This document shows, piece after piece, positions 2 to 29,663 of a DNA stretch of 64,000 bases (positions within the stretch are counted from its first letter, which is position 1; the number at the start of each line of letters is the position of its first letter). The position numbers and the translations under genes are program-made. This DNA comes from Minisyncoccota bacterium. GTDB taxonomy: Bacteria; Patescibacteriota; Minisyncoccia; UBA6257; 02-FULL-45-10c. The stretch covers positions 3,779-67,778 of the forward strand of contig JAQUPE010000003.1 of assembly GCA_028716745.1 (NCBI GenBank). Direction: 5' to 3'. The notes under the pieces were generated by a model. The model was not told the origin of the DNA, ran no database searches, and was given only the letters and a program-made list of their open reading frames with translations.

Positions 2-2353
2 GTTGACTTGAACGTAGTCGGAGAACTTTACGGATACGGTATTACCCCTCCGGTAGGAACTGGAGTTACTGCAGATGCAGCAGCTTTCAGAACTACTGAT
101 GATCCGTGGTATGATGCCGCTGAAGTTTTGGTTTCCACTGGTTCTATGACTGTCAGCACTTATACTGGAGTACAAGCAGCAAACGTTGCTCTTAACTTAG
201 CTGATCAGCCATTAGGTGGTTGGACAGTTGATGTTAAAGGTGAACCGATTTCTGTTGCGAGCATGGTGTTCAACCTCGGTATTACCGATGCTGACTCCGG
301 CTCTGAAGCTCATGTTACAAACATCGACAACATCAAATTGGTAAACGCAGCCGGAACAGTTTTGGCTGGACCTAAAGATGTTGCTGCAGTTTCCGATTAT
401 TCAATTAGATCTGGAACAGTTACATTCACAGATACAATTACCTTCCCGGTTGGTATGACTTACTTGACCATGAAAGGAAAATTGTCTGTTGATTCTGCGA
501 CAGATGCGTTTGAAAATAACGATACTGTCAGAGCTTCTACAACTCCTCAGACCGATTGGACCGCTGCTACTGGTCAGACAACTGGAAAGGCCATAACGAT
601 CTCTCCTAACTCTGCCATTAGCGGTAACATAATGACTGTAAAAGCGGCTACAACGACACTTTCTGTGTCTTCAGTACCGATAGCGCAGACCATTATCGCT
701 GGTTCTAAGGCTTTTGAGTTTGCCAGAATCATAGTCGATACTTCATCCTCGGGTGAAGATATTAGATTCACATCTCTTCCGTTGGAATATAACGGAACCA
801 CCGCTACAAGCTTGACCAATTGTCAGCTTTACGATGGTACGACATCCTTAACGACTAGTTCTAACATTAAGAATCCTACAGCACGCGCTTCCGCTACCTC
901 ATTTACTTTTGACGGTACTGGACTCGTTGTGACAAAAGGCTCTTCCAAACAATTGTCTGTGAAGTGCGATTTGTCCGCGAGCGACACTTCTGGAATCTTC
1001 CAGTGGGGTCTTGATGCGGCTCAGACGTATTCTGCTACCGGATTAACTTCTGGTCAGAGCGCTGGATTCACAGTGGTTTCAAGCGTAGGACAAGCTATGA
1101 CTTCTTCTGCGGGTGGAACAATGACTGTCGCTTTGGACTCTGGTTCTCCTTCTTATAAGCTCGTTGCTCCTGGTCAAACAGTTGAGCTCAGCAGATTAAG
1201 ATTGACAGCCACCAACGAAGACATTGCATTGAAGCAAATTGGTTTGCAATTGACTGACACAGCTTCTAACTCTCCTATAGATTTGGTTGATCAAAAGATC
1301 ACCATCTGGGATGTTACCAGCGGTACAGCCGTTCAAATCGGTGAAGCTACAATTTCTGCTTCTGGAACCTATGCGGACTTCGCTACTTCTTCTGCAATCT
1401 CCAATCTTACGATTGCGAAAGGAGGATACAAAGTTATCGCTCTTAAGGGAACCATTAACTCTATGTCTTCTACTGGAAACTTGACTTCCTCTGGTCACCT
1501 CTTGAAGGTTGACTACGATGCAGGTAACAGAGGCGAGACTGGAATCTATGGAACAGGAGTTTCTTCCGGAACGACCATTTCCCCGACAGCAGAAACAGAT
1601 TCTGCTTCCAAGGGAGTTCGTATCGTGAAGGCATATCCTTCGTTCTCTACAGCTTCTCTTCCGACATCCAATCCTAGATTGTCTGCCGGAAACACAGATG
1701 GCGTGAAGCTTTATCGCTTCAAGGTCACTGCGAACAACGGAGATGTTGCTCTTAACAAGTTCACATTCAGCGTTTCCTCTTCCAGCTTAATGGCCACAAC
1801 TACCAAATATGCGTTGTATCAATTTGATTCCGCTTTTGGTTCAGTTGATGATTCATTTGCTGCGAACGGTTTGTTGAATGCCGGACCTTGCAACAACGGT
1901 CTCTATCAGGCGACAACAACAGCTATCGTCCCTGGTCAGATATACCCAGCTCCGTCTGTAATTGAAATCTACATGGATAAGACCGGTTGCAGCGCAGGAA
2001 CAACCACTTTGGTTATTCCAGCCGGTGTTACCAAAGGTTTCGAATTGAGAGCCACAGTAAACTCTGTTGAAAGCGGAACTACTTCCACCGATCAGATTAC
2101 TGTTGACTTGCTTGGAGATGCTTACTTCCCAGTAATAATGCAGGGAGGTATGGCCGGTATCATGATGTCTTCTTCCACGATCTTCAACGACACTGCTTCA
2201 GTACAGGATCAGGCGAACAACAATTTTGTTTGGTCTCCTATTTCCACAACATCTGAAAGCGGAGTTGGCGATCAGGACTTCACAAACGGTTATGGAGTCA
2301 CTGGATTAGATCCATCAGGTATGGGTTCTGTATCTCTTAACAGCCCGTCATAA
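2..2353 (+). CDS. Large Ser/Thr/Gly-rich secreted or surface protein (S-layer/adhesin-like, multi beta-sandwich). It is 5'-partial: the frame is open to the window edge.
   Basis: 781-aa ORF with no stop upstream in frame. Composition is dominated by T/S/G/A/V with very few charged runs. Repeated ~90-aa segments look like Ig-like modules. A strong terminator follows it. Confidence 0.5.
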   Translation, partial: VDLNVVGELYGYGITPPVGTGVTADAAAFRTTDDPWYDAAEVLVSTGSMTVSTYTGVQAANVALNLADQPLGGWTVDVKGEPISVASMVFNLGITDADSGSEAHVTNIDNIKLVNAAGTVLAGPKDVAAVSDYSIRSGTVTFTDTITFPVGMTYLTMKGKLSVDSATDAFENNDTVRASTTPQTDWTAATGQTTGKAITISPNSAISGNIMTVKAATTTLSVSSVPIAQTIIAGSKAFEFARIIVDTSSSGEDIRFTSLPLEYNGTTATSLTNCQLYDGTTSLTTSSNIKNPTARASATSFTFDGTGLVVTKGSSKQLSVKCDLSASDTSGIFQWGLDAAQTYSATGLTSGQSAGFTVVSSVGQAMTSSAGGTMTVALDSGSPSYKLVAPGQTVELSRLRLTATNEDIALKQIGLQLTDTASNSPIDLVDQKITIWDVTSGTAVQIGEATISASGTYADFATSSAISNLTIAKGGYKVIALKGTINSMSSTGNLTSSGHLLKVDYDAGNRGETGIYGTGVSSGTTISPTAETDSASKGVRIVKAYPSFSTASLPTSNPRLSAGNTDGVKLYRFKVTANNGDVALNKFTFSVSSSSLMATTTKYALYQFDSAFGSVDDSFAANGLLNAGPCNNGLYQATTTAIVPGQIYPAPSVIEIYMDKTGCSAGTTTLVIPAGVTKGFELRATVNSVESGTTSTDQITVDLLGDAYFPVIMQGGMAGIMMSSSTIFNDTASVQDQANNNFVWSPISTTSESGVGDQDFTNGYGVTGLDPSGMGSVSLNSPS

Positions 2354-2376
2354 ACCTAGTCTTGAGCTAGTACAAG

Positions 2377-2400
2377 AAACCCCCGTAAGGGGGTTTTTTG
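2377..2400 (+). terminator. Rho-independent terminator (CCCCC-GTAA-GGGGG followed by TTTTTT)
   Basis: Perfect 5-bp GC stem, tetraloop and U-tract lie 24 nt downstream of the stop of the surface-protein gene. Confidence 0.65.
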
Positions 2401-2401
2401 T

Positions 2402-2429
2402 TTGTCTATTTTTTAAATTTTGCTATAAT
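2402..2429 (+). promoter_or_regulatory. Candidate sigma70-like promoter TTGTCT-16nt-TATAAT upstream of the TPR gene
   Basis: TTGTCT at 2402-2407 and TATAAT at 2424-2429 with a 16-nt spacer, about 10 nt before the ATG at 2440. Confidence 0.3.
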
Positions 2430-2439
2430 AGTTATCAAT

Positions 2440-3210
2440 ATGAAAACAAAAACAACCATCATAATTTTAGCGGTATTAATTTTGGTCGCAGGAGCGTCTT
2501 GGCTTATTTATAAAGATTTATCCAATAAGGAACCTCAGGCGCAGGAAGCAGAAAATACAGCATCTACAACAGAGTCTAATAGTCAGGCAGAGCAGATTGC
2601 CGAAAATGAAGCTTATCAAGCTTTGGCCAATGAGATAATCTCTCATCCAATAGCTTTTGGAAAGGACGTATCCGAGGCCGATAAACAGAGGTATACAAAA
2701 AAGATTAATGAAATTAAGGAGTCTATCAGGAAAAATTTCGATTATGATCTCGTTTGGCTGGATTTGGGAAATTATTTGAAAGCCGCCGGTGATTATAATG
2801 GAGCGATTGAAGCCTTTAATTTTGTCGGCAAGATTCGTCCGGAAAGCTATGTTTGCTTCCATAATTTGGGAGATTTGTACGGATTTTATCTGAAAAATTA
2901 TCCTAAGGCGGAAGAGAGTTTTTTGAAGGCGATTAAAAATGAGCCAGCCAGCGCAGACAGCTATGTTTTACTGACACAAGTTTATTATTCTTATGAGGCA
3001 GGCAAGGCGAAGATAGAGCCTCTATTGTTGAAGGGAATTAAAAGCAATCCGACTAATGCTAGCTTAAAAATCATGCTGGGTGAATATTATAATCGGGAAG
3101 GAAACAATGTTGAGGCTTTAAAATATTTTGAGGAGGCGTTTAAATCAGATCCGACAAACACGGCCTTAAAGGAGGATATAGAGAAGCTGAAAGCTTTGAT
3201 AGGATTGTAA
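2440..3210 (+). CDS. TPR-repeat protein with N-terminal membrane anchor
   Basis: The ORF-track start at 2398 is unlikely. MKTKTTIIILAVLILVAGASWLIY forms a TM/signal anchor. The C-terminal half has repeated A..Y..A/G..Y..G TPR-like helices (ALKYFEEAFKSDPTN). Confidence 0.55.
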   Translation: MKTKTTIIILAVLILVAGASWLIYKDLSNKEPQAQEAENTASTTESNSQAEQIAENEAYQALANEIISHPIAFGKDVSEADKQRYTKKINEIKESIRKNFDYDLVWLDLGNYLKAAGDYNGAIEAFNFVGKIRPESYVCFHNLGDLYGFYLKNYPKAEESFLKAIKNEPASADSYVLLTQVYYSYEAGKAKIEPLLLKGIKSNPTNASLKIMLGEYYNREGNNVEALKYFEEAFKSDPTNTALKEDIEKLKALIGL

Positions 3211-3915
3211 TTATTTGCGGAAAATTAATTTCCAAGGCATCAAAATGGCTTCCGATATTATATTGGAAGTCATTTTTGATTTTCCGTTGCTTCGTTCATC
3301 GAAGAAAATCGGGATTTCTTTTATTTGCGCGTTATTTTTGAGAAGATAATATTTTAGGCTAAATATGAAAGCGTATCCCTTAGGGCTCAATAAATCGAGA
3401 TCTATTCTTTTGAGAACGTTTGTTTTAATCAGATTATATCCGGTAGTCCAGTCTTTTATCTGTTTTCCTAAAATCATTCCTAAATAAATATTTGCTCCGC
3501 GGCTCAGAAGTCTTCTGAAGAAATTCCATTTTTTTGTTATTTCTCCTCCCTTAATATATCTTGAGCCGATTACTAAATCGCAGTTCTTTGCTTGTTCTAT
3601 CATTGGAAGAAGCGTTTCTGGGTTATGAGATAAATCTCCGTCCATCATTATAATGTTTTCAAATTTTTCTCCGGAAAGTATTTTTTTAAATGCTGCCACA
3701 TAGGCTTTGCCAAGTCCTTGTTTTTCCGGCCGTTCCAAAAGAAGAAGATTGGGGAATTTCATCCGCATTTTTTTAATGACAGCGGCTGTTCCGTCCGGAG
3801 AGCTGTCATCAACTACCATGACATAAATATCCGGAACAGAATTGAAAATTTTTTCCAAAAGGATGGCTATAGACTCTTTTTCGTTGTAGGTTGGGATCAC
3901 AATTATGCTGGCCAT
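3211..3915 (-). CDS. GT2 glycosyltransferase, Dpm1-like polyprenol-phosphate mannose/glucose synthase
   Basis: N-terminal IVIPTYNE...VVDDSSPDGT...DGDLSHNPE is the typical GT2 DXD/DxxD arrangement of dolichyl/undecaprenyl-phosphate sugar synthases. The 234-aa size fits. Confidence 0.7.
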   Translation of the reverse strand: MASIIVIPTYNEKESIAILLEKIFNSVPDIYVMVVDDSSPDGTAAVIKKMRMKFPNLLLLERPEKQGLGKAYVAAFKKILSGEKFENIIMMDGDLSHNPETLLPMIEQAKNCDLVIGSRYIKGGEITKKWNFFRRLLSRGANIYLGMILGKQIKDWTTGYNLIKTNVLKRIDLDLLSPKGYAFIFSLKYYLLKNNAQIKEIPIFFDERSNGKSKMTSNIISEAILMPWKLIFRK

Positions 3916-3994
3916 AATAATATGAGTATTATAACAAGTTTTTTGAAAACATTGTTTTACCGGCGATTTTTGATTAGAATATAGCTATTAATCA

Positions 3995-5629
3995 ATGAAG
4001 CCATTAAGCTCTAAATTTATTATTTTAGCCGTTGCGGCAATTGTTGCCGCAGCCTTTTTATTTAGGATTATCGGAGTTGGCAGTCTTGATATGGCAGGCG
4101 ATGAGGCTTCTTATGCTTTCAGGTCAATCGGATATTTGGACTACATAGGCACCAGTTTTCAAACGCAGCCAGTAGAGTGGTTTAACGGAAAACAATTGCC
4201 TTTTTGGACCAAGCTTTCTTTTCATGATCAGCCGCCGCTTGTTTTTGCAATACAAAATTCATTTTTCAGAGTTTTCGGAGATTCGGCGCTGGTTGCCCGT
4301 TTGCCCTCGGCAATATTCGGCGCGGCTTCGGTATTTTTAATTTATATTTTAGCCAAGATGTTTTTAGGGGAATCACTGGCCTTGCTTTCGGCATTTATTT
4401 TTGCGGTTAACGGAGCCTTGGTTGGAATTTCAAGAACGGCATTGCTGGAACCGATTCTTTTATTTTTTATTCTTCTTAATATTTATTTATTTTTTAAATT
4501 TGTCGGTTCGCCGAAACGTTATTGGCTGGCTTGGGGGACGAGCTTAGGCTTAGTATTTCTTTCAAAGTACACGGGAGTTTTTCTTATCCCTATTTATTTT
4601 ATTTATTTATTAATAGGAGAAAGAGCGGTTTTTAAAAATTCAAAATTTTATTTGGCTTTAATAGTGGCTCTAATTTTATTCAGCCCGGTTATTATTTATA
4701 ATATTTGCCTTTATAAAGCGGTTGGCCATTTTGACTTGCAGATTTCTTATTTGCTGGGACAAAGCACTCCCGAATGGCAGAGCCTCATAGGAAAGGTTCA
4801 AAATCCATTTTCAGAAATAGGCAAGAATCTTTTGAGCCTATATGGCGTTCCGGCTCTAATTGCCGCGTTATTAGGAGCTATTTATTCGGCTTTTTCGTTT
4901 GTTAAAATCCGTTCGCCGTTTATTTTATTTTGCTGGCTATATATTGTCTCGCTGGTTTTGTTGCTTATAAAGATAGGATCGGCTCCGAGGTTTATAGTTC
5001 TTTTCGCGCCGGTTCTCATTATTTTTTCCGTTTTATTGATTAAGTTCATTTGGGGTTTGAAGGGCGGAACAAAATTTAATTATCTTTTTAAATTTTTAGC
5101 GGTAGCTTTTATTTGTTTTGAAATTTTCTTCTCTGTCAAAAGCAATTTTTTTAATATTAATAATTATGGAATAGCGAGCCTGGATAATAGCCTGAACGAA
5201 ATATTTAAAGGAAAGCAGTCGGCTTCAGTTCCTTCTTCTTCTAATTCTCATTTAAACGATGTAATTAAAGAATTTTCTCAGAAACAAAAAGGAAAGCTTT
5301 ACCCATTTATAATTGTTTATAACGATAATGTTGCCATGCCGACGCTGCAATGGATTTTTTATAGGCGTTTCTTTTATCACAGTATTCCGACTCTTTATGT
5401 AGAAGACTTTGTTAAAATGATCCAGGGAAAGCAGGTGGATTTGAGGGGATTCGATATTTATTTTGTTCAAAGTACGGAAAATACATTGCTTAATCAATTT
5501 AAGCTCGACAAGAAGATCGGCGCAGAGCTTGAGGAAAATCTGAAAAAAAATACTCAAAAGCCGCCGGAAATTATTTATGGCCAGGAGGGCAGGGAAATGT
5601 TCAGGATTTATAATTTTTCCTTAAAGTAA
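3995..5629 (+). CDS. GT-C fold polytopic membrane glycosyltransferase (GT39/PMT_2 / ArnT-like)
   Basis: About 11 predicted TM helices. A conserved acidic DE motif sits in the first extracytoplasmic loop (MAGDEASYAF), as in PMT/ArnT-family transferases. It is divergently paired with the Dpm1-like GT2 gene. Confidence 0.6.
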   Translation: MKPLSSKFIILAVAAIVAAAFLFRIIGVGSLDMAGDEASYAFRSIGYLDYIGTSFQTQPVEWFNGKQLPFWTKLSFHDQPPLVFAIQNSFFRVFGDSALVARLPSAIFGAASVFLIYILAKMFLGESLALLSAFIFAVNGALVGISRTALLEPILLFFILLNIYLFFKFVGSPKRYWLAWGTSLGLVFLSKYTGVFLIPIYFIYLLIGERAVFKNSKFYLALIVALILFSPVIIYNICLYKAVGHFDLQISYLLGQSTPEWQSLIGKVQNPFSEIGKNLLSLYGVPALIAALLGAIYSAFSFVKIRSPFILFCWLYIVSLVLLLIKIGSAPRFIVLFAPVLIIFSVLLIKFIWGLKGGTKFNYLFKFLAVAFICFEIFFSVKSNFFNINNYGIASLDNSLNEIFKGKQSASVPSSSNSHLNDVIKEFSQKQKGKLYPFIIVYNDNVAMPTLQWIFYRRFFYHSIPTLYVEDFVKMIQGKQVDLRGFDIYFVQSTENTLLNQFKLDKKIGAELEENLKKNTQKPPEIIYGQEGREMFRIYNFSLK

Positions 5630-6736
5630 TTTATAAACGCCTTCGGTTTCCTTAACCATTTTTTCAAGAGAGAAATTTTCTCTGATATTTTTTTGCGCTT
5701 TAGCTCCAAATTCTTCGGCTAGTTTGGGATTTGTTAAAAGGCGATTGATGGCATCCGCAAGCATCCCCGGGTTTTTTTGGGGCACAATTAAGCCGTTTTC
5801 TTCGTTTTTAACGACTTCGGGCATGCCGCCTGCATTAGTGACTATAGTCGGTAATCCGGCAGCCATAGCTTCAAGAAGAATATATGGGAGGCCTTCTTTT
5901 ATGGAAGGCAGAACAAAAATATCAAAAGCTTTTAAAAACATAGCATCGTTTCCAATAGGATCAACGATAAAAGTATTTTTTAAATTTAATTTTTTAATTA
6001 AATTACTCAATTTTACTCTCTTCTGTCCATCGCCAATTATTATGAAGTTTGCGGTCGGAATTAATGAAGCCGTTTTGATGAGGGCTTCATAATTTTTTTC
6101 TTTTGTCAGTCGCCCAATAGAGCCAATAAAAGGTAAATTTATATTTATATTCTTATTTTTACGTCCAGCATCTTTTTTAATGAATAGTCTGGAATTTTCG
6201 CGTGTTTCTAAATTGAAATTATTTATGCCGTTATGAATCATAGTTAATTTTTCGGCGGGGGCGATTTTATATTTAAGCGCTAATTGATAATCGCACCCGG
6301 AAACGCAGATTATTTTATCCTGAAACAAAGCGGCAATTTTATGAAGTAAAATATAAAACCAGCGGATAGGAGCGATTATTGCATTGTCGGGATTAAAAAC
6401 CCAGCCGTGGGCGGTAAAAACCACTTTAGTTTTTCCATAAATTTTTGCGGCGATAGCGCCGAGTACGCCTGCCTTGGAGCTGTTTAGATGAACGATGTTC
6501 GGGCGTTCTTTTTTGTAAATTTTTATTAATTCAAAAATAGCTAATATGTCATTGGAGAATAAAAATCCGCTATTATTGGATAGGTGTTTTATTTTATCGT
6601 TCTCTGCTCCTATGCCTCCAAATGAAACCTTTGTTTCAAAAAGGCTTTTATCCAAATTATTGGCAAGGTCAGTAACATTTTTTTGCGCTCCGCCCCAGCC
6701 GGATTTTGTAATAATAAATAGAACTTTTAGCTTCAT
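5621..6736 (-). CDS. GT4 family glycosyltransferase (GT-B)
   Basis: C-terminal EGLPYILLEAMAAGLPTIVTNAGGMPEVV is the E-x7-E/GT4 signature. The start was moved to MKLKVLFIITKSGWGGAQ (ATG at 6734-6736 on the complementary strand). Confidence 0.75.
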   Translation of the reverse strand: MKLKVLFIITKSGWGGAQKNVTDLANNLDKSLFETKVSFGGIGAENDKIKHLSNNSGFLFSNDILAIFELIKIYKKERPNIVHLNSSKAGVLGAIAAKIYGKTKVVFTAHGWVFNPDNAIIAPIRWFYILLHKIAALFQDKIICVSGCDYQLALKYKIAPAEKLTMIHNGINNFNLETRENSRLFIKKDAGRKNKNININLPFIGSIGRLTKEKNYEALIKTASLIPTANFIIIGDGQKRVKLSNLIKKLNLKNTFIVDPIGNDAMFLKAFDIFVLPSIKEGLPYILLEAMAAGLPTIVTNAGGMPEVVKNEENGLIVPQKNPGMLADAINRLLTNPKLAEEFGAKAQKNIRENFSLEKMVKETEGVYKLL

Positions 6737-6774
6737 TTTTGTGTTATATAAATATAACTTATAATATAACGTGT

Positions 6775-7956
6775 ATGGACAATGAAAAGCCACAAATAGC
6801 GGTTTTTTCTTTAGCTTTTTATCCTTTTGAGGGAGGGGCTGAAGTAGCTTGCCGGGAGATAATAAAGCGCCTGCCAAGGCTGAATTTCGCGATTTTTACT
6901 TATAAATTTGATATGAAGTGGCCTTCTGTTGAAGCGGACGGAAATGCCGAAATTATCAGGCTGGGGCTGGGAAGCAACGGAAAGAAATACGGCAGAATTT
7001 TGGATAAAGCGCTTTATATTTTTAGGGCTTTACGCGCGGCGGAAAAAGCTCATAAAGAAAAAAAATTCAAAGTGATCTGGGCGATAATGGCTTCTTATGG
7101 CGGAATCGCTGCTTTATTTTTTAAGTTGAGGCATCCGGAAATTTCTTTGTTATTAACTGTTCAGGAAGGAGATTCGGAAAAATATCTGGTATCCGGAAGA
7201 ATGGGACTCGTAGGTTTTTTTGGAAAAAAGATTTTTCAAAAGGCGGATTTTATACAGGCGATAAGCAATTATTTGAAAGATTTTGCTATTAAGCGCGGAG
7301 CGCGCTGTCCGATAGAAGTCGTTCCGAATGGAGTGGATATTAAAAATTTCAGCAAGAAATATTCCGAATTGGAAATTAAGGAATTAAGAGACAGGCTGGG
7401 CCTTAAAGACGAATATATTATTGTAACGACTTCCCGCTTGGTTTATAAAAACGGCGTGGATGTCTTGATTGACGCAATAGCGAAATTCAGAGAAAAAACT
7501 CCGAATGTAAAATGCCTGGTTGTCGGAGACGGGCCGGAGCGGAGTAATTTAGAATCAAAAATAAAGAAATTGGGAATTGAAAGGAATATTTTATTGCTCG
7601 GACAGATAGATCAGAAAGAAATCCCTCTTTATTTGAAAATTTCCGATATTTTTGCAAGGCCATCCCGTTCTGAGGGACTGGGAAATTCTTTTTTGGAAGC
7701 GATGGCTGCCGGTATTCCGGTTATTGGAACTCCGGTTGGGGGAATTGTTGATTTTTTGGTTGATAAAGAAACAGGATTTATCATGCAGGTGGACGATTCA
7801 AAAGAATTAGCCGATAAAATTGATTTTATAATTCAAAATCCCGAGCTTTGCAAAAAAATAGCTAATAACGGGCTTAAAATGGTTAAGGACAGGTATTCTT
7901 GGGATAAAATTGCCGAATCGTTCAGCGATATATTCAATAATAAATTAATTAAATGA
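6775..7956 (+). CDS. GT4 family glycosyltransferase
   Basis: SEGLGNSFLEAMAAGIPVIGTPVGGIVDFL motif. The start was moved to MDNEKPQIAVFS to avoid overlap with the divergent gene. Confidence 0.75.
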   Translation: MDNEKPQIAVFSLAFYPFEGGAEVACREIIKRLPRLNFAIFTYKFDMKWPSVEADGNAEIIRLGLGSNGKKYGRILDKALYIFRALRAAEKAHKEKKFKVIWAIMASYGGIAALFFKLRHPEISLLLTVQEGDSEKYLVSGRMGLVGFFGKKIFQKADFIQAISNYLKDFAIKRGARCPIEVVPNGVDIKNFSKKYSELEIKELRDRLGLKDEYIIVTTSRLVYKNGVDVLIDAIAKFREKTPNVKCLVVGDGPERSNLESKIKKLGIERNILLLGQIDQKEIPLYLKISDIFARPSRSEGLGNSFLEAMAAGIPVIGTPVGGIVDFLVDKETGFIMQVDDSKELADKIDFIIQNPELCKKIANNGLKMVKDRYSWDKIAESFSDIFNNKLIK

Positions 7957-9077
7957 CAAAACTTTTAATAACTACCGGAATTTTTCCGCCCGATATCGGC
8001 GGGCCGGCGGCTCAAATTGAATATTTGGCTTCGGATTTGGTTAATGCGGGGTTTAAAGTGACGGTTTTAACTTATGGATCGCCGGAGAAAAAGGAGAGGA
8101 ATTTTAAGCTGGTTAAGGTTTCAAGAAAATTATTGCCGGGATTAAAGCAATTGATTTTCGGCATAAAAGTTTTTTATCTGGCTTATAAGTCGGAAGTTAT
8201 TTATACGACAGATTTGTATTCTCCTGGATACTGGTCAATGTTGGCGGCAAAAATTTTAAATAGGAAGTTCGTTGCCCGTTTTGCGGGGGATTCGGCGTGG
8301 GAAACAGCTGTTAATTCCGGCCAGACCAATGACGATATAGTTGTTTTTCAGGATAAAAAATACAACAGCTTTATTGAAAAAAGAAAAAAACAAAGAGCCA
8401 ATATTTTAAAATCAGCCGATGCGATTGTGGCAGTCAGTAATTTTATGAAACATTTGGCGATGAAAATCGGCGTGGAAGAAAGTAAAATAAAAGTTATTTA
8501 TAATGCCGTAGATTTTTTGCCGGACATTCCGAAATATCAGGAGCCGGCTGCTCCAACCCTGACTTTCGTCGGCCGATTAACTCCTTGGAAGGGAGTAGAA
8601 ATGCTTGTTCGGGTTATGGCGGAATTGAAATTAAAATATAAAGATATTATGCTGGAAGTTCTCGGCGAAGGATCGGAGTTTGAAAATCTTAAAAATTTAG
8701 CTGAAAATCTTGGGCTTAAGGATAACGTAATGTTTCGCGGAAGAGTGAGTAAGCAGGAGGCGTTATCTATTCTTAGCCGTTCAACTGTATTTGTTTTAAA
8801 CACTAATTATGAGGGCCTGCCTCATACGGTTTTAGAAGCTATGAGCGTAGGAGCGCCGGTTATTACTACTTTGGTAGGCGGGAATCCCGAGGTCGTTAAG
8901 GATGAGGAAAATGGCTTTCTTTTGCCCTATAATGACAAAAGAGCGTGGGTTGGCGCTATCGATAGATTGCTGGGTGACAAGGGCCTGAGAAATAAATTTT
9001 CTCAGAATGGACTCAAAACATTGGAGAAGTTTAAGTGGAATGAGTTACTGAGCAAAACCATAGAAGTTTTAAAGTAA
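7953..9077 (+). CDS. GT4 family glycosyltransferase
   Basis: YEGLPHTVLEAMSVGAPVITTLVGGNPEVV motif. ATGA start/stop overlap with the upstream gene. Confidence 0.75.
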   Translation: MTKLLITTGIFPPDIGGPAAQIEYLASDLVNAGFKVTVLTYGSPEKKERNFKLVKVSRKLLPGLKQLIFGIKVFYLAYKSEVIYTTDLYSPGYWSMLAAKILNRKFVARFAGDSAWETAVNSGQTNDDIVVFQDKKYNSFIEKRKKQRANILKSADAIVAVSNFMKHLAMKIGVEESKIKVIYNAVDFLPDIPKYQEPAAPTLTFVGRLTPWKGVEMLVRVMAELKLKYKDIMLEVLGEGSEFENLKNLAENLGLKDNVMFRGRVSKQEALSILSRSTVFVLNTNYEGLPHTVLEAMSVGAPVITTLVGGNPEVVKDEENGFLLPYNDKRAWVGAIDRLLGDKGLRNKFSQNGLKTLEKFKWNELLSKTIEVLK

Positions 9078-9081: not shown

Positions 9082-10542
9082 ATGAAAAAAATAATACTTA
9101 TTAATCCGGCTTTTAATATTGTTAAGTCAAAATACGATACCAGCTTATCGGTTGGGCTTTTGTGTCTGGCTTCTTATTTATATAAAAGGAATTTCCCGGT
9201 GAAAATCGTTGATTGCGCCAGGCAGGGGAATTGGCAGGAAACTTTGGATAAAGAATTGTCGCAGACCGGATATGTTGGCTTGTCGGTTATGACCTCACAG
9301 GTTCCTTCCGCTATTGAGATAGCAAAAAAAATAAGAAAAGCATATCCGAAAATTAAATTAATCTGGGGCGGTCCCCACGTTACATTTTTCCCAAAAGAAG
9401 TTTTGGAAAGCGATTTATCTGATTTTATAGTTTTAAATGAAGGGGAAAAAACTTTGTGGGAGCTTTTGCAGGAGCTTGAAAAAAACAGCGGAGATTTTTC
9501 AAAAATCAGGGGGCTGGGATATAAATCAAGCGGAAAGATTTTCATAAATCCTCCAAGAGAGCTTTTGCCGATGGAGGAAATTCCTTTGCCTAATTGGGAA
9601 TTGGTGCCCAAGGAAATTTTGGAAAGACTGGAAATGGTGCCGACGCATACTTCGCGCGGCTGTCCGCACAGATGCGCTTTTTGCATCAATGCCATTACAA
9701 AAAATCGTTGGAGAATGAGAAGCTCGGAACAGGTCTTAAGCGATATCTCCATAATTGAATCCAAGCCGTTTTTTACAGGAAAGAAACTCCGTTTTTGGGA
9801 CGAGAATTTTTTTGTTGATTTGAGAAGAGTTGCGGAAATTGTGGATGGAATGATTTCAAAGAAACTTATTGTTCCTTGGGAAACTACGATAAGAGCGGAT
9901 TATTTTTCTCTTCCGGATTTAACAGATGAATTTTTGGCGAAGCTTAAAAAATCAGGCTGTTATTTGCTTTCTTTCGGAGCGGAATCGGGATCTATAAAAA
10001 TTTTAAGAAAAATAGATAAAGACATTACAAGGGAGCAGATTTTGAATTCCGCTCGCCGATGCCTGAAATACGGGATAATTCCTCAATATTCATTTATGGT
10101 TGGACTGCCCGGCGAATCAAGAGAGGATATGAATCAGACAATCAGCTTAATAGATGAGTTATTGAAACTCGACGCCAGAGTGCAAATACTCGGCCCGCAG
10201 GCGTTTCGCCCCTATCCAGGCTCTCCTTTATATGAAGAATGCTTGCTATCCGGCTGGAAGGCTCCGGCTGGCTTGGAAGATTGGTCAAATGCCATACTGA
10301 ATGAAATGAGTTATTTGACCCCATACCAGTTTCCCTGGGTAAAAGATCCGGACATGGTGGATTCCTTGGAGGCCTATGCCCGTTTTGGAGCTCAGAGCTT
10401 TAAGAGCGCGCTTGGCTCGACTGTTACTTCGAATAAATTTCTAAAGTTTTTGTTTTCTTTGGTTTGCAGGCTTCGCTGGAAGTTGAGATTTTTTAAATGG
10501 CCTATAGAATATAAATTGGCGAAGAAATATGTTGCTAAATAA
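9082..10542 (+). CDS. B12-binding domain radical SAM protein (class B)
   Basis: N-terminal Rossmann-like B12-binding region is followed by SRGCPHRCAFC (CxxxCxxC radical SAM cluster motif). 486 aa. Confidence 0.75.
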   Translation: MKKIILINPAFNIVKSKYDTSLSVGLLCLASYLYKRNFPVKIVDCARQGNWQETLDKELSQTGYVGLSVMTSQVPSAIEIAKKIRKAYPKIKLIWGGPHVTFFPKEVLESDLSDFIVLNEGEKTLWELLQELEKNSGDFSKIRGLGYKSSGKIFINPPRELLPMEEIPLPNWELVPKEILERLEMVPTHTSRGCPHRCAFCINAITKNRWRMRSSEQVLSDISIIESKPFFTGKKLRFWDENFFVDLRRVAEIVDGMISKKLIVPWETTIRADYFSLPDLTDEFLAKLKKSGCYLLSFGAESGSIKILRKIDKDITREQILNSARRCLKYGIIPQYSFMVGLPGESREDMNQTISLIDELLKLDARVQILGPQAFRPYPGSPLYEECLLSGWKAPAGLEDWSNAILNEMSYLTPYQFPWVKDPDMVDSLEAYARFGAQSFKSALGSTVTSNKFLKFLFSLVCRLRWKLRFFKWPIEYKLAKKYVAK

Positions 10543-10550
10543 ATACTAAG

Positions 10551-11246
10551 ATGAAAAAAACCAACGAAGAATTAAAAAAGATTATTGATGAAAAGGCGCC
10601 CGGAAGCCCGGAAGAAAAAAACTGGGCTTTTAATGTTTTGTTCAAAGATTGGGCGAATATGCACGAATATATTTATAAAAGATTCAATGTTGATTTTGGA
10701 ATGAATATTCTGGACATCGGCAGCAATTATGGGCAAAACTTTATTCATTTTGGAAAAGACTCTCTCGGCGTCGAGATAAATCAAAAGGCGGTGGAATTTG
10801 CAAAATCGCTGGGGCTCAAAGTTGCTTCAATCAATGCTGAAGACGATTTAAAATCAATTAATCAGAAATTCAATCTTATCTGGTGCACCGATTTTTTGGT
10901 GCATGTAGCCAGCCCTTATAAGTTTTTATACGATAGCCGCAAGTTGCTGGAGGATAAGGGAAAAATTATTATTCAGATTCCTCTTATGTCAATATTCAAC
11001 AGGCATAAATCAGGCTGCCATCTTTATGCTTTTAATAAAAAAGCGCTTTTGTATTTAATGGAAATGGCCGGTTATAAAATTATTAAAACCTCCGGCTATA
11101 TAAGAAAAAAGCCGAAATGGTTTAATTTTATTTTTGAACCGCTTCTTCAGATTTATGGAGGAAATATCTGGGTATTGGCGGAGAAAAAAGAAGGCACTCC
11201 TTTTAATTTGCAAAAGGTTTTTATGCCGAAATGGTTTGAAATTTAA
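10551..11246 (+). CDS. Class I SAM-dependent methyltransferase (divergent)
   Basis: ILDIGSNYGQNF (motif I-like Gly-rich loop) and an overall Rossmann MTase layout. Low similarity. Confidence 0.45.
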   Translation: MKKTNEELKKIIDEKAPGSPEEKNWAFNVLFKDWANMHEYIYKRFNVDFGMNILDIGSNYGQNFIHFGKDSLGVEINQKAVEFAKSLGLKVASINAEDDLKSINQKFNLIWCTDFLVHVASPYKFLYDSRKLLEDKGKIIIQIPLMSIFNRHKSGCHLYAFNKKALLYLMEMAGYKIIKTSGYIRKKPKWFNFIFEPLLQIYGGNIWVLAEKKEGTPFNLQKVFMPKWFEI

Positions 11247-11258
11247 ACGTTAAATAAA

Positions 11259-12023
11259 ATGGACTGGAAAAAATTAGAACAACCCTATTATCTTAGGTCA
11301 AAAAAATATGAAGGAGGAAAATACTTATCCTTGAACAGAAAGCATAAGGGCGTTTTAGAATATTTGGATTTTGCTTTGGAGAAAATCAATAAAGACGGCG
11401 TTGATTTCTGCGACGCTGGATGCGGGAACGGAATATATCTTAAATTTTTAAAGGAAAATAGAACTGGATTGGCGAGCCTGTGCGGCTTTGATTTTTCGGA
11501 AAAAATCGTTGAATTGGCAAAGGAAAACACGGGTTTAGAGGAGATTAAGATCGGAAACCTTGAAAATGCTCCTTTTGGGAATGAAAAATTTGATCTGATA
11601 TTATGCACTCAGGTAATAGAGCATTTATTGGAAGATAAAAGGGGAATTGCGGAGTTATATAGGATGTTGAGAAAAGGCGGGTATTTGGTAATAAGCACAG
11701 ATAATACATATAATATTATCTCCGAGTTCTTAAATTTGCCGTTTAGAATTTTGTCTTTGCCTTACGCCTTGCTTAAAAAGATTTTTAGGGATAAAAAATA
11801 TTTTCCTCATAAATCTTACTCGATTAAAGAATTCAAGAATTTAATCGGTGTTGGAAATTTTGAAATAGAAAAAGTTTCGACATTCAGATTTTCTATGCCG
11901 TTCCCGTTTTATAAGATCAAGGCAATGAGAGACACAATAGATTTTTTTGAAATGATTTGCGGAAAAATTGGAATTTTCAAAAATAATGGAGATATAGTAA
12001 TCGCTTTGTGCAAAAAAATATGA
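11259..12023 (+). CDS. Class I SAM-dependent methyltransferase
   Basis: DAGCGNGIYLKFL (motif I), FDLILCTQVIEHL (motif II) and LRKGGYLVIST (motif III). Confidence 0.65.
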   Translation: MDWKKLEQPYYLRSKKYEGGKYLSLNRKHKGVLEYLDFALEKINKDGVDFCDAGCGNGIYLKFLKENRTGLASLCGFDFSEKIVELAKENTGLEEIKIGNLENAPFGNEKFDLILCTQVIEHLLEDKRGIAELYRMLRKGGYLVISTDNTYNIISEFLNLPFRILSLPYALLKKIFRDKKYFPHKSYSIKEFKNLIGVGNFEIEKVSTFRFSMPFPFYKIKAMRDTIDFFEMICGKIGIFKNNGDIVIALCKKI

Positions 12024-13450
12024 TAACTCTTATCCAAATAAATTACAGCGAGGATCACTCGGAAAAAATATTGCCGCTGGGCATTCTTTCGGTTGGAAGC
12101 GCGCTTAAAAAGAAGGGATATGATGTTCAGCTTATAAATATTAATGAAAGGCAGATAAATAGTACGGCAGAAAAAATTGCGGCAATGAAGCCCGACTTTA
12201 TAGGCATTTCAGTAATGACGGGAATTCAAACCCAGCATAGCGCCGAGTTTTCAAAGAAAATAAAACAATTGGGCAATATCCCGATAGTGTGGGGTGGAAT
12301 ACATCCGACTTTGTTGCCGGATCAGTGCATAAAAGAAGAATATATAGATTATGTAATTTATGGCGAAGGAGAAATAACCACTTTGGAATTTGCGGAGAAA
12401 TTTTATAAGGATAAGAATTTCAGCGGAATTTTGGGATTAATTTATAAAAAGGACGGCAAGATTATTACAAATTCCGAAAGGCCGCTTATTGAGAATCTGG
12501 ACGCCTGGAGGCTGGATTTCAGCTTGATTGATATGAATCAGTTTATTTTTCCTTTGAGCAAATATAAAAGGGTTATCGCTTATAAATCCAGCAGGGGATG
12601 TCCGTTTGGCTGCGCTTTTTGCTATAACTTCAAATTTAATAAAAGCAGATGGAGGGTTTGGTCTGAAGACGCGGTTATGGAAGATATAAATTTTTTGAAG
12701 GAAAAATATAAAATAGACGCGATAAAGTTTTATGACGATAATTTTTTTGTGGACAAAGAGCGTGCACTTTCATTGTTATCAAAAATAAATTTGCCGTGCC
12801 ATTTGGAAATAAGAATAGATTTTATAGATGATGAGCTGGTGGCTAAGCTGAAAAACTTTAATATTTTTGACATGCTTATCGGACTTGAATCGGGATCTGA
12901 AAGGATGCTTCAGCTGATTGATAAGCGTTTTACAGTTGAAAGATTGCTTCAGGGAGTGAGAAGCATAGCCAAATATGGATTGCATGCCACCTATTCTTTT
13001 ATAGTGGGACTGCCATCGGAAACAGAAAAAGATTTTAATGAAACAATCAGCGTAATGAATCAGGTTTATAAAATTCATCCTCAGGCGGGATTTACTGTTG
13101 GCGCTTATCTGCCGTATCCGGGATCAAAACTTTATGATTTCAGCTTGATGCAGGGGTTTGTTCCGCCGCAGAGAACTGAGGATTGGGGGAAAATAGACCG
13201 GTTTAGAAAGGATTTTAATTCTCCTTGGGTTAATGTAAGGAAAGTCTGGGTCATCAGAGAGTGCTTTAAGATTTTAAGCTGGGATCTGAAGATATTGAAA
13301 AAATGGTTTGAATTCAGAATAAGCCATAATTTTTATTCTTTTCCTATAGATATTTATGTCGTTGAATTTTTGGCCGGCATAGCGATAGAGGAGAAGTGGT
13401 TTGTGGGTAAGTTAATGCGCCGTTTATACAATAAATTAAGGAATAGATGA
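12008..13450 (+). CDS. B12-binding domain radical SAM protein (class B), paralog 2
   Basis: SRGCPFGCAFCYNF CxxxCxxC motif. Same architecture as the 9082 gene. Confidence 0.75.
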   Translation: MQKNMITLIQINYSEDHSEKILPLGILSVGSALKKKGYDVQLININERQINSTAEKIAAMKPDFIGISVMTGIQTQHSAEFSKKIKQLGNIPIVWGGIHPTLLPDQCIKEEYIDYVIYGEGEITTLEFAEKFYKDKNFSGILGLIYKKDGKIITNSERPLIENLDAWRLDFSLIDMNQFIFPLSKYKRVIAYKSSRGCPFGCAFCYNFKFNKSRWRVWSEDAVMEDINFLKEKYKIDAIKFYDDNFFVDKERALSLLSKINLPCHLEIRIDFIDDELVAKLKNFNIFDMLIGLESGSERMLQLIDKRFTVERLLQGVRSIAKYGLHATYSFIVGLPSETEKDFNETISVMNQVYKIHPQAGFTVGAYLPYPGSKLYDFSLMQGFVPPQRTEDWGKIDRFRKDFNSPWVNVRKVWVIRECFKILSWDLKILKKWFEFRISHNFYSFPIDIYVVEFLAGIAIEEKWFVGKLMRRLYNKLRNR

Positions 13451-14550
13451 AAGTTTTAATTATAAATTTAGACAAGGGTATTTTTAAGCAAGAATCGGCC
13501 GTGTTGGAAAAGCTCCGAAAACACAGCCGTTTTTTTGATAAATTTTTTACGATTACCTGGACTTTAAAAAATGACAAAGTCATTATTGAAAATAATTTAG
13601 CGGCTTACCCGACTAATTCTATCGCGAAGATTTTTTACATTTTTGATACATTGAGGATTTTTAAGAAATTTATAGCGAAGGAAAAGATAGATTTAGTTTC
13701 GGCTCAAGATCCTTTTGAAACAGGCCTGGCTGCCTGGATGGTAAGCAGGCTGTTTAAGATTCCTTTGCATTTGCAGGTACATACGGATGTTTTTAGCCCA
13801 TATTTTTGGAAAGATTCGTTTTCAAATAAAATCAGAGTTTTGCTGGCTAAATTTTTACTGCCTAAGGCCGATGGAATAAGAGTAGTTTCCGAAAGAATAA
13901 AAAAATCTTTCGCCGGACTAAATCTTAAAACCGAGCCGGTTGTTTTATCGATATTTGTAGATGCTTCTAAAATCCAAAGAGCGGAAATAAAAAGCGATTT
14001 GCGGAAAAAATATCCGCAATACGATTTTATTATTTTAACAGCCTCGCGTTTTACCAAGGAAAAGAATATCGGCTTATCTATTGGGGCCATGAAGGAAATC
14101 GTAAAAAGGCATCCGAAAACAGGATTGGTAATAGCCGGTTCCGGTCCAGAAGAGAATAAGCTGAAGGTAATGGTTGAAAAATCGGGATTAAATAATAATG
14201 TTGTTTTTGAGCCATGGACTAAAGATTTGGCTTCTTATTATAAAAGCGCCGATTTGTTTATTTTGACTTCTAATTATGAAGGGTATGGTTTGGTGGTAGA
14301 GGAGGCGATGATTGCCGGCTTGCCGGTGGTAATGACGGATGTCGGCTTGGCCGGAGAAATCGTGAAAAATGAAATTAACGGGATTATTGTTCCGGTTGGA
14401 GATGCCGATAGATTAATTAACGCAGTTAATTTATTATTAGAGAACGGAGAAAAAAGGAAGAATTTGGCCGAAAAAGCCTTAAAAATTTCGGCAGATCTGC
14501 CCGAAGAAGAACAGATAATAAGACAGTCGCTAGTCGTAAAAAATTTATAA
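13447..14550 (+). CDS. GT4 family glycosyltransferase
   Basis: YEGYGLVVEEAMIAGLPVVMTDVGLAGEIV motif. Confidence 0.7.
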   Translation: MKVLIINLDKGIFKQESAVLEKLRKHSRFFDKFFTITWTLKNDKVIIENNLAAYPTNSIAKIFYIFDTLRIFKKFIAKEKIDLVSAQDPFETGLAAWMVSRLFKIPLHLQVHTDVFSPYFWKDSFSNKIRVLLAKFLLPKADGIRVVSERIKKSFAGLNLKTEPVVLSIFVDASKIQRAEIKSDLRKKYPQYDFIILTASRFTKEKNIGLSIGAMKEIVKRHPKTGLVIAGSGPEENKLKVMVEKSGLNNNVVFEPWTKDLASYYKSADLFILTSNYEGYGLVVEEAMIAGLPVVMTDVGLAGEIVKNEINGIIVPVGDADRLINAVNLLLENGEKRKNLAEKALKISADLPEEEQIIRQSLVVKNL

Positions 14551-14555
14551 CATTT

Positions 14556-15197
14556 ATGGAAAAGGGAATAGAATCGGTTTATAAGCATCATCATCAAAAT
14601 AGGCCTCCGGAGTTCGCCGTCTTTGGGGATGCGCGCGGAAATTTTTTCAGCAGCCAAATAGGAAAAGGAAAAAAAGTCTTGGATTTGGGATGTCGAGATG
14701 GTACTTTGGCGAAATATTTTTTGGAAGGCAATAGGGTTTGGGGAATTGATATAGATAATGAAGCGCTTGGCAGGGCGGCGGAAAAAGGAATAACAACTCG
14801 CCAGGTGGACTTAAATGGTTCCTGGGATATTTTAAATGGAGAAAAATTTGATGCCGTGGTAGCGGCCGAAGTGCTGGAGCATCTTTATTTTCCGGAAATT
14901 GTTTTGGATAAAATAAACGATGTTCTTAATTCCGGCGGAGTGCTGGTTGGCTCTATTCCGAATGCATTCAGTTTGAAAAATAGGATAAGATTATTGCTTG
15001 GAAAAAAGAGATATACCACATTAGGCGATCCGACCCACATAAATCATTTCAGTTTCAATGATTTGAACAATGCCTTGAAAAAAAAGTTTACAGAGGTCAA
15101 AATAAAGCCATTGGTCAGGAAGCCCTTTGGCCCTATAGCCAGGCTTATGCCGGGCCTAATAGCTTACGATTTTATCTTTTCAGCTAAAAAAATATGA
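14556..15197 (+). CDS. Class I SAM-dependent methyltransferase
   Basis: VLDLGCRDGTLAKYF (motif I), DAVVAAEVLEHLYFPE (motif II) and GGVLVGSIPN. Confidence 0.65.
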   Translation: MEKGIESVYKHHHQNRPPEFAVFGDARGNFFSSQIGKGKKVLDLGCRDGTLAKYFLEGNRVWGIDIDNEALGRAAEKGITTRQVDLNGSWDILNGEKFDAVVAAEVLEHLYFPEIVLDKINDVLNSGGVLVGSIPNAFSLKNRIRLLLGKKRYTTLGDPTHINHFSFNDLNNALKKKFTEVKIKPLVRKPFGPIARLMPGLIAYDFIFSAKKI

Positions 15198-19991: not shown

Positions 19992-19995
19992 GCCT

Positions 19996-20958: not shown

Positions 20959-20962
20959 GAAG

Positions 20963-27209: not shown

Positions 27210-27210
27210 C

Positions 27211-29652: not shown

Positions 29653-29663
29653 GATAAAAACCT

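Follow-up and report, generated by a model that had tools for sequence, protein, structure and literature searches.

We analysed a stretch of 64,000 nucleotides from a Minisyncoccota bacterium (contig JAQUPE010000003.1, positions 3,779 to 67,778), referred to here as the window. Its first genes encode the large Ser/Thr-rich surface protein BIG (2..2353, plus strand), a membrane-anchored protein with tetratricopeptide repeats (the TPR protein; 2440..3210, plus strand) and two divergently transcribed glycosyltransferases (GTs), GT2a (3211..3915, minus strand) and GTCa (3995..5629, plus strand). A preliminary description of the window, made from its letters alone, had proposed that BIG, GT2a and GTCa form a protein O-glycosylation module, and we find the interpretation as surface-protein glycosylation partly supported. 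All the GT genes on which that description had drawn, those for GT-C proteins starting at 3995, 17310 and 20963 and for GT2 enzymes starting at 3211, 15194 and 19035, were confirmed. It had missed the TPR gene (2440..3210), a hairpin at 2372-2401 and, further along the window, a protein combining Wzy_C with TPRs and a WbaP-type initiator. The proteins of the window are identical to MDD5547579-MDD5547623, National Center for Biotechnology Information (NCBI) entries for a metagenome-assembled genome of 'Candidatus Pacebacteria bacterium'; GC content is 35-47%, and nearly every gene lies on the plus strand. The bacterium is uncultured and ultra-small and belongs to the Paceibacteria (Parcubacteria; Patescibacteria).

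The BIG reading frame is open from the window edge, its gene start lying upstream, and its 783 residues, the C-terminal part of the protein, match residues 459-1241 of MDD5547579.1 (P0001; 1241 aa; Candidatus Pacebacteria) with 100% identity; the NCBI name of this entry is 'peptidoglycan-binding domain-containing protein'. The full-length protein starts with a Sec signal peptide (MSKLTTKISIAAISAMTVLSLSGAIVPVANA/AL), followed by a poly-Thr tract, a PG_binding_1 domain (PF01471, 32.7 bits vs a cut-off of 23), a second linker (GGTTTTTTTSTGTTTTTTTGG) and a long β-rich body. The poly-Thr tracts TSGTTTTTTATGS and GGTTTTTTTSTGTTTTTTTGG are in the N-terminal part, beyond the window edge; an example of a BIG linker peptide is ...AGGTTTTTTTSTGTTTTTTTGGALSVSLAADQPASNVAPGGAAR. 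Throughout, Pfam matches were judged against the curated gathering cut-offs and NCBIfam matches against the equivalog cut-offs: no Pfam domain was found in the window part of BIG, and neither BIG nor the TPR protein received an equivalog-level NCBIfam assignment. Ser and Thr account for 25.9% of the window part, compared with 7-12% in 14 neighbouring proteins of the window. This part is acidic, poor in Cys and not of low complexity, and AlphaFold2 modelled it as an all-β chain of β-sandwich domains (pLDDT 82). In a Foldseek search the model matched PrgB, an adhesin of Gram-positive bacteria, in its Ig-like domains (8.6e-17), and further matches were to AgI/II adhesins, to integrin legs and to the S-layer (surface layer) protein of Nitrosopumilus maritimus. 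The high Ser/Thr content on which the preliminary description built is therefore real; calling it 'extreme' was an overstatement, the window part being folded and all-β. The protein's secretion, also part of that description, is borne out by the signal peptide and the wall-binding domain of the full-length form, so that a cytoplasmic protein or one without a signal peptide need not be considered. BIG is thus secreted, wall-binding, acidic, rich in Ig-like domains and conserved as part of a core operon; that it forms an S-layer is something we only infer. The BIG gene has a GC content of 45.6% (36-39% in neighbouring genes), most simply explained by the Ala/Gly/Thr/Ser-rich composition of the protein, and two cysteines, C274 and C322 in the numbering of the window part, are invariant.

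Homologues of BIG, about 1200 aa long and 43-59% identical, make up at least 669 protein clusters from at least 341 GTDB species genomes. We compared the gene neighbourhoods of 80 BIG-homologue loci (L001-L080) and found a conserved unit consisting of a regulator gene of ~264 codons (69/80 loci), BIG and, directly 3′ of it, the TPR gene (67/80). The usual neighbours of this unit are housekeeping genes (ftsK, recA, ssb, efp, clpB), a setting that argues for BIG as a core, vertically inherited envelope gene. Linkers rich in T, S, P and G (TTPTTP, TPTP, GTGT, TTGG, poly-T) are a trait of the whole family. The ~264-aa putative regulator has an N-terminal helical region and a C-terminal winged helix; the window's own copy of the gene lies just past the left edge. 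We did not find the BIG family in the literature searched on S-layer proteins and O-glycosylation in Parcubacteria and the Candidate Phyla Radiation (CPR); one preprint refers to predicted S-layer proteins of Patescibacteria but gives no particulars.

BIG's conserved partner in the window, the 256-aa TPR protein, is exactly MDD5547580.1 from its annotated start. It has a single N-terminal hydrophobic helix, directly after MKTK, as membrane anchor and a TPR domain recognised by TPR_2 (2.9e-11) and by other TPR families. Between BIG and the TPR gene, 19 nt past the BIG stop codon, is a terminator-like hairpin on the plus strand (2372..2401; 13-bp stem with six GC pairs, and a T-run), and after it, at 2402-2429, comes a promoter-like site that has an extended -10 element. 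Promoter and terminator sites were scored as pattern matches whose regional total did not exceed the expectation from shuffled sequence; the hairpin behind BIG is the only individually striking one.

GT2a is a soluble GT-A enzyme of 234 aa (PF00535, E 6.6e-25) and, by similarity, a polyprenyl-phosphate hexose synthase of the dolichol-phosphate mannose synthase (DPMS/Dpm1) type, as the preliminary description had suggested. The best solved relative is the Pyrococcus furiosus DPMS (5mlz, E 1.7e-32), to whose residues 26-242 GT2a residues 4-226, nearly the full length, could be aligned with the DxD motifs in register (DGD against DAD); ArnC reached only ~5e-6. GT2a remained below all NCBIfam equivalog cut-offs, with 61 bits vs 325 for AglJ and 35 vs 375 for the halobacterial dolichyl-phosphate hexose transferase model, so that its sugar is not defined by these models.

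GTCa is a membrane glycosyltransferase of 544 aa that exceeded the cut-offs of both PMT_2 (PF13231, 3.7e-29, 102 bits) and PMT (PF02366, 7.9e-15, 55.5 bits vs 22.7). AlphaFold2 predicted with high confidence (pLDDT 92) a GT-C_A fold with ~11 transmembrane helices, a long outer loop 1 and a C-terminal soluble α/β domain of ~155 aa (about residues 390-544). The other two GT-C proteins that had been put forward for this check also matched PMT_2, GTCb with 4.6e-9. As read from 45 GTCa homologues, outer loop 1 is the best-conserved part of the protein: D36 is invariant, E37 is retained in at least 90%, and R43, D49 and the H77-D78-x-P80 residues are invariant or nearly so. R102, also conserved in at least 90%, aligns with R138 of Pmt1, and 'GDEa' of GTCa lies opposite 'FDEV' of Pmt4 in a weak stretch of the profile alignment. 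Functional roles for the loop-1 Asp-Glu and the Arg equivalent to R138 are known from the literature on protein O-mannosyltransferases (PMTs). A phmmer search of the PDB with GTCa residues 1-123, which include loop 1, gave no match, so the equivalence of loop-1 residues with those of PMTs is drawn from the weak profile alignment. Searched as a single sequence against solved structures, GTCa retrieved only yeast Pmt1 (6.5e-7), ArnT being absent; the family profile ranked Pmt1 first (1.4e-8), then Pmt2 and two Pmt4s, and then ArnT (9e-5). Identity to PMTs is ~18-21% over the core. The 'PMT/ArnT-like' assignment with a loop-1 DE motif in the preliminary description therefore stands, with GTCa nearer in sequence to PMTs than to ArnT. 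Existing annotations of these genes are generic, for example 'glycosyltransferase family 39 protein', and some GTCa homologues are labelled 'putative 4-amino-4-deoxy-L-arabinose lipid A transferase' in their source entries.

GT2a and GTCa are separated by a spacer of 79 bp (3916-3994), and their homologues are adjacent in L001, L016 and L026 too. We then asked how the GTCa family is built elsewhere, using its profile to search 1.84 billion representatives, which returned 384 clusters at E <= 1e-30. Two independent 50%-cluster representatives among these, P0307 (L090:8001-10427) and P0344 (L091:6173-8596), are ~808 aa long and have an N-terminal extension of ~240 aa; according to Pfam both are GT2::PMT_2 fusions. 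Over the full length of GT2a their GT2 domains share 39% (2e-49) and 34% (1e-38) identity with it. Fusion of the two enzymes in two other lineages argues that they are one donor-synthase/transferase pair, and from the sequences GT2a and GTCa very probably make up a lipid-linked-sugar synthase and its cognate transferase. The fusions join a cytoplasmic donor synthase covalently to an outward-facing transferase that uses its product, which raises the question of how the lipid-linked sugar flips.

With 10 kb as the limit for GT-C proximity, 16/80 loci have a gene of the GTCa family near BIG; in one more locus, L018, the sole GT-C is GTCc-like and lies 9 kb from BIG. The association of the GTCa family with BIG takes at least four gene orders. 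In the window the order is BIG-TPR-GT2a(-)-GTCa-GT4 island, and in L011 and L035 it is BIG-TPR-GTCa-GT4 and so on. A larger group (L002-L008, L012, L030, L033, L048) has BIG-GTC′-SMALL-(GTCa/TPR)-GT4 and so on, GTC′ being a second GT-C paralogue. In the Niyogibacteria loci L016 and L026 the pair is upstream, in the order PAP2-GT2a-DUF2079(-)-GTCa-regulator-BIG-TPR, and no GT4, Wzx or Wzy_C genes were found within 10 kb. The PAP2 lipid phosphatase and DUF2079 membrane protein beside the Niyogibacteria pair (L016:4225-7175) have a counterpart at the fusion gene of L090, where DUF2079 recurs, split into two open reading frames (5366-6840). Among six distant GTCa homologues (39-45% identity), four adjoin BIG. 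The P0307 fusion gene is convergent to a regulator, a distant BIG homologue (E 1.7e-103), a TPR gene and an orthologue of the Wzy_C+TPR protein (L090).

SMALL, which sits between the two GT-C paralogues in these relatives, is a secreted protein of 320-375 aa with a BIG-like signal peptide and N-terminus, a poly-Thr tract, PG_binding_1 (6.6e-13) and an S/T-rich linker. It was located at L002:15373-16494, with equivalents in L001, L003-L008, L012, L030, L033, L048, L081, L083 and L087. GTC′ and SMALL are present or absent together, and both are absent from the window, L011 and L035. In a neighbour-joining tree the GT-Cs split into an 'after-BIG' clade, whose members are always directly 3′ of BIG, and a 'next-to-TPR' clade, with the Niyogibacteria genes as outgroup; the window GTCa belongs to the second clade, whose genes often overlap the TPR gene by 1-4 bp. 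GT4a, the gene that follows GTCa in the window, has orthologues (E 1e-99 to 1e-130) adjoining TPR/GTCa in L002-L008, L011, L019, L030, L035 and L048. Recurrence of the association despite rearrangement, duplication beside a second substrate-like protein, and fusion together argue for a functional link and not for inherited synteny alone. We consider it likely that the pair is functionally tied to the BIG operon or to an envelope glycoconjugate.

The pair opens an island of ~53 kb (3.2-56.5 kb), whose remaining genes are on the plus strand unless stated. Behind GTCa is a block of three GT4 genes (5621..9077), made up of GT4a (5621-6877, minus strand), which is the conserved neighbour of GTCa and TPR in relatives, and the genes at 6739-7956 and 7953-9077. 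A tailoring block follows (9082..17304) with three B12-binding radical SAM enzymes (9082-10542, 12008-13450 and 15889-17304), SAM methyltransferases starting at 10551, 11259 and 14556, a GT4 starting at 13447, and GT2b (15194-15892). Next come GTCb (17310..19019), the second PMT_2-type GT-C, a 569-aa protein with GDE as its loop-1 motif and a sequence far diverged from that of GTCa, and a Gtr-like module (19035..22273). This comprises GT2c, a GtrB-like GT2 with two C-terminal transmembrane helices (19035-19991), a flippase-like LPG_synthase_TM protein (19996-20958; TIGR00374 70 bits vs 43, PF03706 1.7e-34) and the PMT_2 GT-C GTCc (20963-22273); as a three-component module it has an MprF-type flippase domain in place of GtrA. 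The three GT2/GT-C sets of the island are mutually divergent, and no GT-C of the window received an equivalog-level NCBIfam assignment. A methyltransferase (22257-23009, minus strand) and three further GT4 genes (23006-24070, minus strand; 24128-25249; 25239-26369) lead to a nucleotide-sugar and nonulosonic-acid block (26484..43649) with GNATs, two DegT aminotransferases, a 4,6-dehydratase/epimerase, a formyltransferase, two CMP-sugar cytidylyltransferases and oxidoreductases. Within it are a GT4 (28477-29652), a weak match to BFO_1060-family transferases (32012-32932), a NeuB/PseI-like synthase (36709-37926) with 274 and 235 bits, both under the equivalog cut-offs, and a fourth B12-binding radical SAM enzyme (42162-43649). 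The nonulosonic-acid pathway looks complete and is of the pseudaminic or legionaminic type; its stretch at 36-44 kb, with the NeuB and oxidoreductase genes, is a second GC-rich one (41-47.5%).

The island continues with an AsnB-like glutamine amidotransferase of 1107 aa (43656-46979), which may amidate a sugar acid of the glycan and whose C-terminal ~470 aa have no Pfam match, a second weak match to BFO_1060-family glycosyltransferases (46957-48333), and a Wzx-type flippase (48330-49556). The Wzy_C+TPR protein (50460..52673; 737 aa, MDD5547623.1) combines Wzy_C (2e-21) with C-terminal TPRs, the layout of the O-oligosaccharyltransferases PglL and WsfB (PMC2943079), and is by its domains a candidate en bloc O-oligosaccharyltransferase. 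It is present although the organism is expected to lack lipopolysaccharide (LPS). Its orthologues directly follow BIG-TPR in L090 and lie 5.7-6.8 kb 3′ of BIG in L024, L034 and L038. At the far end of the island are a Wzx/MOP flippase (52670-54118, minus strand), an NAD-dependent epimerase/dehydratase (54175-55131) and the WbaP-type initiating polyprenyl-phosphate glycosylphosphotransferase (55144-56484, minus strand; TIGR03025 346 bits vs 295.6). In total there are eight GT4s, five methyltransferases, four B12-binding radical SAM enzymes and two Wzx proteins; the radical SAM enzymes and methyltransferases suggest unusual sugars, C-methylated or tailored in some other way, in this CPR bacterium with its reduced genome. 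The radical SAM enzymes are of class B, and a cobalamin adenosyltransferase gene lies just past the island (58995-59528). Also just past it, in the regions 56547-58706 and 60397-62440, are genes for a DsbA-like thioredoxin-fold protein and a thioredoxin reductase and, after these, a cluster of five tRNAs (Gly, Pro, Arg, Phe, Ala). Judged by its predicted proteins, the gene content of the island fits the slg-type pattern of surface glycosylation.

By analogy, the pair most resembles in function the Ppm1/Dpm1 + PMT systems of actinobacteria and eukaryotes and the streptococcal Pgf and GtrB/PgtC2 systems. The former (GT39; Rv2051c/Rv1002c of M. tuberculosis, Streptomyces, fungi, animals) likewise combine a GT2 polyprenyl-phosphate sugar synthase with a GT-C that has a PF02366/PF13231 core, the loop-1 Asp-Glu, the R138-equivalent Arg and ~11 transmembrane helices; Pmt1, Pmt2 and Pmt4 are the closest solved structures by profile, and here, too, the candidate substrates are secreted and carry linkers rich in Thr. 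Pmt acts as a general enzyme, whereas the GTCa family is encoded beside one surface-protein operon and includes GT2::GT-C fusions; GTCa also differs in its ~155-aa C-terminal domain and in having neither PMT_4TMC nor MIR. The animal O-mannosyltransferases TMTC1-4 consist of a GT-C with fused TPR domains. They share with this locus, in architecture only, a PMT_2-type GT-C core and extracytoplasmic TPRs; here the TPRs are on a separate membrane-anchored protein, whose gene adjoins or overlaps GTCa in relatives and is tied mainly to BIG (67/80 loci) and not to the GT-C. ArnT (GT83) resembles GTCa in its PMT_2 match, GT-C_A fold, C-terminal soluble domain and size, but it has 13 transmembrane helices against the ~11 predicted for GTCa, the profile similarity of GTCa is higher to PMTs, and GT2a is DPMS-like in contrast to ArnC.

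In streptococci, PgfS or GtrB works with a GT-C in the O-glycosylation, outside the cell, of disordered protein regions rich in Ser and Thr, and the adhesin substrates are encoded in the pgf operon itself (PMC12041528). The likeness lies in a GT-A synthase of Und-P-sugar with an outer-face GT-C and, here, in GT-C genes interleaved with BIG and SMALL. PgfM1 and PgtC2 are, however, of the YfhO family (PMC12041528), whereas GTCa matched only PMT_2 and PMT; the streptococcal synthase is GtrB-like with transmembrane helices and GT2a is soluble and DPMS-like; and the organisms and envelopes differ. GTCa is thus outside GT39 by its C-terminal domain, outside Pgf by the YfhO family and outside TMTC by the fusion. 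For the island the comparison is with slg loci, in which glycosylation clusters adjoin S-layer genes and O-oligosaccharyltransferases have a TPR domain or a separate TPR partner (PMC2943079). As in Geobacillus stearothermophilus and Paenibacillus alvei, a surface-protein gene lies beside the island and is separately transcribed. Shared gene content comprises a WbaP/WsaP-type initiator, GTs, methyltransferases and an exporter, and a Wzy_C O-oligosaccharyltransferase with TPRs (WsfB, PglL) or a small TPR partner (WsaA/WsaB); a lipid-carrier step for a side-branch glucose (WsfH/WsfD) is described for slg loci. Nonulosonic-acid genes and BFO_1060-family transferases are also features of general O-glycosylation in Tannerella forsythia. 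BIG, in contrast, is not homologous to SgsE, SpaA or TfsA/B, is anchored by PG_binding_1 and not by SLH, and is a putative S-layer protein; export here is by Wzx instead of an ABC transporter, and three PMT_2-type GT-Cs and four B12-radical SAM enzymes are atypical of slg clusters.

These observations suggest a lipid-carrier-dependent, two-step glycosylation module in which GT2a would move a hexose, mannose-like by homology, from a nucleotide sugar to polyprenyl phosphate on the cytoplasmic face, a step that is well supported. The lipid-linked sugar would then be flipped across the membrane; this is assumed, and no flippase is assigned to the pair. GTCa, for which the fold and the catalytic loop are in evidence, would transfer the sugar outside the cell, and we infer that the most likely acceptors are Ser and Thr residues in the Thr-rich linkers of BIG. 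In relatives the second peptidoglycan-binding protein, SMALL, would be a further likely acceptor, and a role as substrate adaptor is possible for the membrane TPR protein. The pair would be one arm of the island, which would also build a nonulosonic-acid glycan linked to polyprenyl diphosphate, using the WbaP-type initiator, the GT4s and Wzx. That the divergent pair (3211..5629) is such a module, working on the membrane's outer face and serving the neighbouring surface-protein operon, we regard as an evenly balanced proposition, and the sequences make Ser/Thr of BIG as the direct acceptor a slightly weaker one. A broader reading would be a lineage-wide envelope glycoprotein system of Paceibacteria, with the regulator-BIG-TPR operon producing an S-layer-like coat, the PMT-like GT-C O-glycosylating its Thr linkers from polyprenyl-P-hexose, and the TPR protein serving as adaptor in the manner of a split TMTC. 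The GT-C subfamily would sometimes be fused to its own DPMS-like synthase and sometimes duplicated, each paralogue following one secreted substrate gene. Taken as a whole, this combination is speculative and we doubt that all of it holds.

Several results weigh against BIG as the substrate of a dedicated pair. No GT-C was found within 10 kb in 63/80 BIG loci, and two of the six distant GTCa homologues, as well as the P0344 fusion, stand alone among housekeeping genes. The terminator-like hairpin parts BIG from the genes downstream. The Ser/Thr content of the linkers did not differ with the presence of an adjacent GT-C (Mann-Whitney p = 0.23), and the 27 TPR homologues checked (140-268 aa) included no TPR::GT-C fusion and had no GT-C domain, the long members of the GTCa family being GT2 fusions. 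On the enzyme side, GTCa has neither PMT_4TMC (PF16192; no match at E <= 0.01) nor MIR, which makes it PMT-like and not a canonical GT39 member, and it is below every NCBIfam equivalog cut-off (best Agl23-like, 50 bits vs 126). Foldseek confirmed the GT-C_A fold that the preliminary description had expected, but ranked AglB (1.0e-9), ArnT (5f15, 1.1e-9, TM score 0.56), STT3s, ALG12 and Pmt4 (4e-7) near-equal. A search that places oligosaccharyltransferases, ArnT and PMTs alike does not point to one acceptor. Outside the Niyogibacteria loci L016 and L026, which have none nearby, a GT4 cluster flanks GTCa in relatives, and it could be the Wzy_C+TPR protein that acts on protein directly, with GTCa then decorating the glycan. 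The dedicated module of the preliminary description is thus backed by the GT2/GT-C pairing seen in the fusions, by recurrence at the BIG operon and by the slg-type island; the protein acceptor is putative, and mannose as the sugar is suggested by homology.

The en bloc route to protein O-glycosylation that the Wzy_C+TPR protein offers makes glycan decoration a strong rival, which we rate as possible but rather unlikely. GT2a/GTCa, GT2b/GTCb and the GT2c-flippase-GTCc module would each add a single side-branch sugar to the island oligosaccharide at the outer face, either while it is lipid-linked or once it is attached, and the Wzy_C+TPR protein, or nothing, would join the glycan to BIG. Comparable steps are Gtr O-antigen glucosylation, P. 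alvei WsfH/WsfD, streptococcal GacI/GacL and archaeal AglD/AglS, and a lipid-carrier glucose branch is described in P. alvei (PMC2943079). The pair does border a complete polyprenyl-PP pathway (initiator, eight GT4s, two Wzx, Wzy_C+TPR), the same GT4 genes follow GTCa in relatives, three mutually divergent GT2/GT-C sets are what branch-adding enzymes would look like, and the fold search gives a protein acceptor no preference. This rival is harder to reconcile with L016 and L026, in which regulator-BIG-TPR directly follows the pair and GT4, Wzx and Wzy_C genes are absent within 10 kb, with the GTCa-family members that are alone among housekeeping genes, with the one-to-one interleaving of GT-C paralogues and two secreted Thr-linker proteins, and with the sequence affinity of GTCa to PMTs. 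An acceptor in the wall or membrane is improbable. Here GTCa would glycosylate the matrix bound by the PG_binding_1 domain of BIG, such as peptidoglycan, a secondary wall polymer akin to teichoic acid, or a lipoglycan, much as in Firmicutes S-layer/secondary-cell-wall-polymer loci or in actinobacterial PPM-dependent lipomannan synthesis. Both BIG and SMALL carry the PG_binding_1 anchor, the pair has PAP2 lipid phosphatase and DUF2079 for neighbours in L016 and L090, PMT_2 covers a wide range of enzymes, the lipid-directed ArnT among them, and GT-Cs of the YfhO type modify teichoic acids as well as proteins (PMC12041528). Yet the window showed no genes for teichoic acids or an LCP ligase, GTCa is nearer in sequence to PMTs than to ArnT, Parcubacteria are reported without lipid A (PMC5220378), and it would stay unexplained why GT-C paralogues are paired with secreted Thr-linker proteins.

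Still less probable is coincidence, with the pair marking one end of a glycan island, mobile or variable, that inserted by chance beside a core surface-protein gene, and no functional tie between them. In most lineages the core BIG-TPR operon is indeed found amid housekeeping genes (FtsK, RecA, SSB, EF-P), a GT-C is nearby in only ~20% of loci, and the loci with a downstream GT-C are mostly from the closest relatives, so that shared descent could account for much of the synteny. Even so, rearranged forms of the association are met in deeply divergent lineages, namely the upstream position in Niyogibacteria, the downstream one with duplication and the convergent fusion gene, and 4/6 distant GT-C homologues adjoin BIG. 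The least probable explanation, which we consider highly improbable, is an ArnT-like modification of lipid A. It would fit the place of ArnT among the top Foldseek matches and the homologue annotations that name a lipid A transferase. We rejected it as the activity of GTCa, ArnT being placed below four PMTs by profile and absent from the single-sequence search; in addition, GT2a fits DPMS (1.7e-32) and not ArnC (~5e-6), no ArnA, ArnB or ArnD genes adjoin the pair, and a lineage-level report describes Parcubacteria as having no lipid A/LPS genes (PMC5220378). The same report makes moot the contrast with 'O-antigen synthesis' that the preliminary description had drawn.

We did not find the regulator-BIG-TPR operon, its coupling to a PMT-like GT-C subfamily or the GT2::GT-C fusions in the literature searched. 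The structure and formation of the CPR envelope 'remain unclear', and a glycosylated S-layer has only been speculated upon (PMC5220378). The locus provides testable candidates for CPR envelope components, namely the BIG family, its TPR partner, the regulator, the GT2/GT-C pair and the slg-like island. If GTCa glycosylates BIG, PMT-type lipid-carrier-dependent protein O-glycosylation would extend to a third major bacterial group, and protein and glycan surface markers would become available for epibiont-host attachment, for phage receptors and for the enrichment or labelling of uncultured cells. Should the broader, lineage-wide reading hold as well, the CPR would have, in BIG and the enzymes encoded beside it, a first defined envelope protein and a first defined machinery for protein glycosylation. 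The main value of these findings is that the CPR envelope becomes experimentally approachable.

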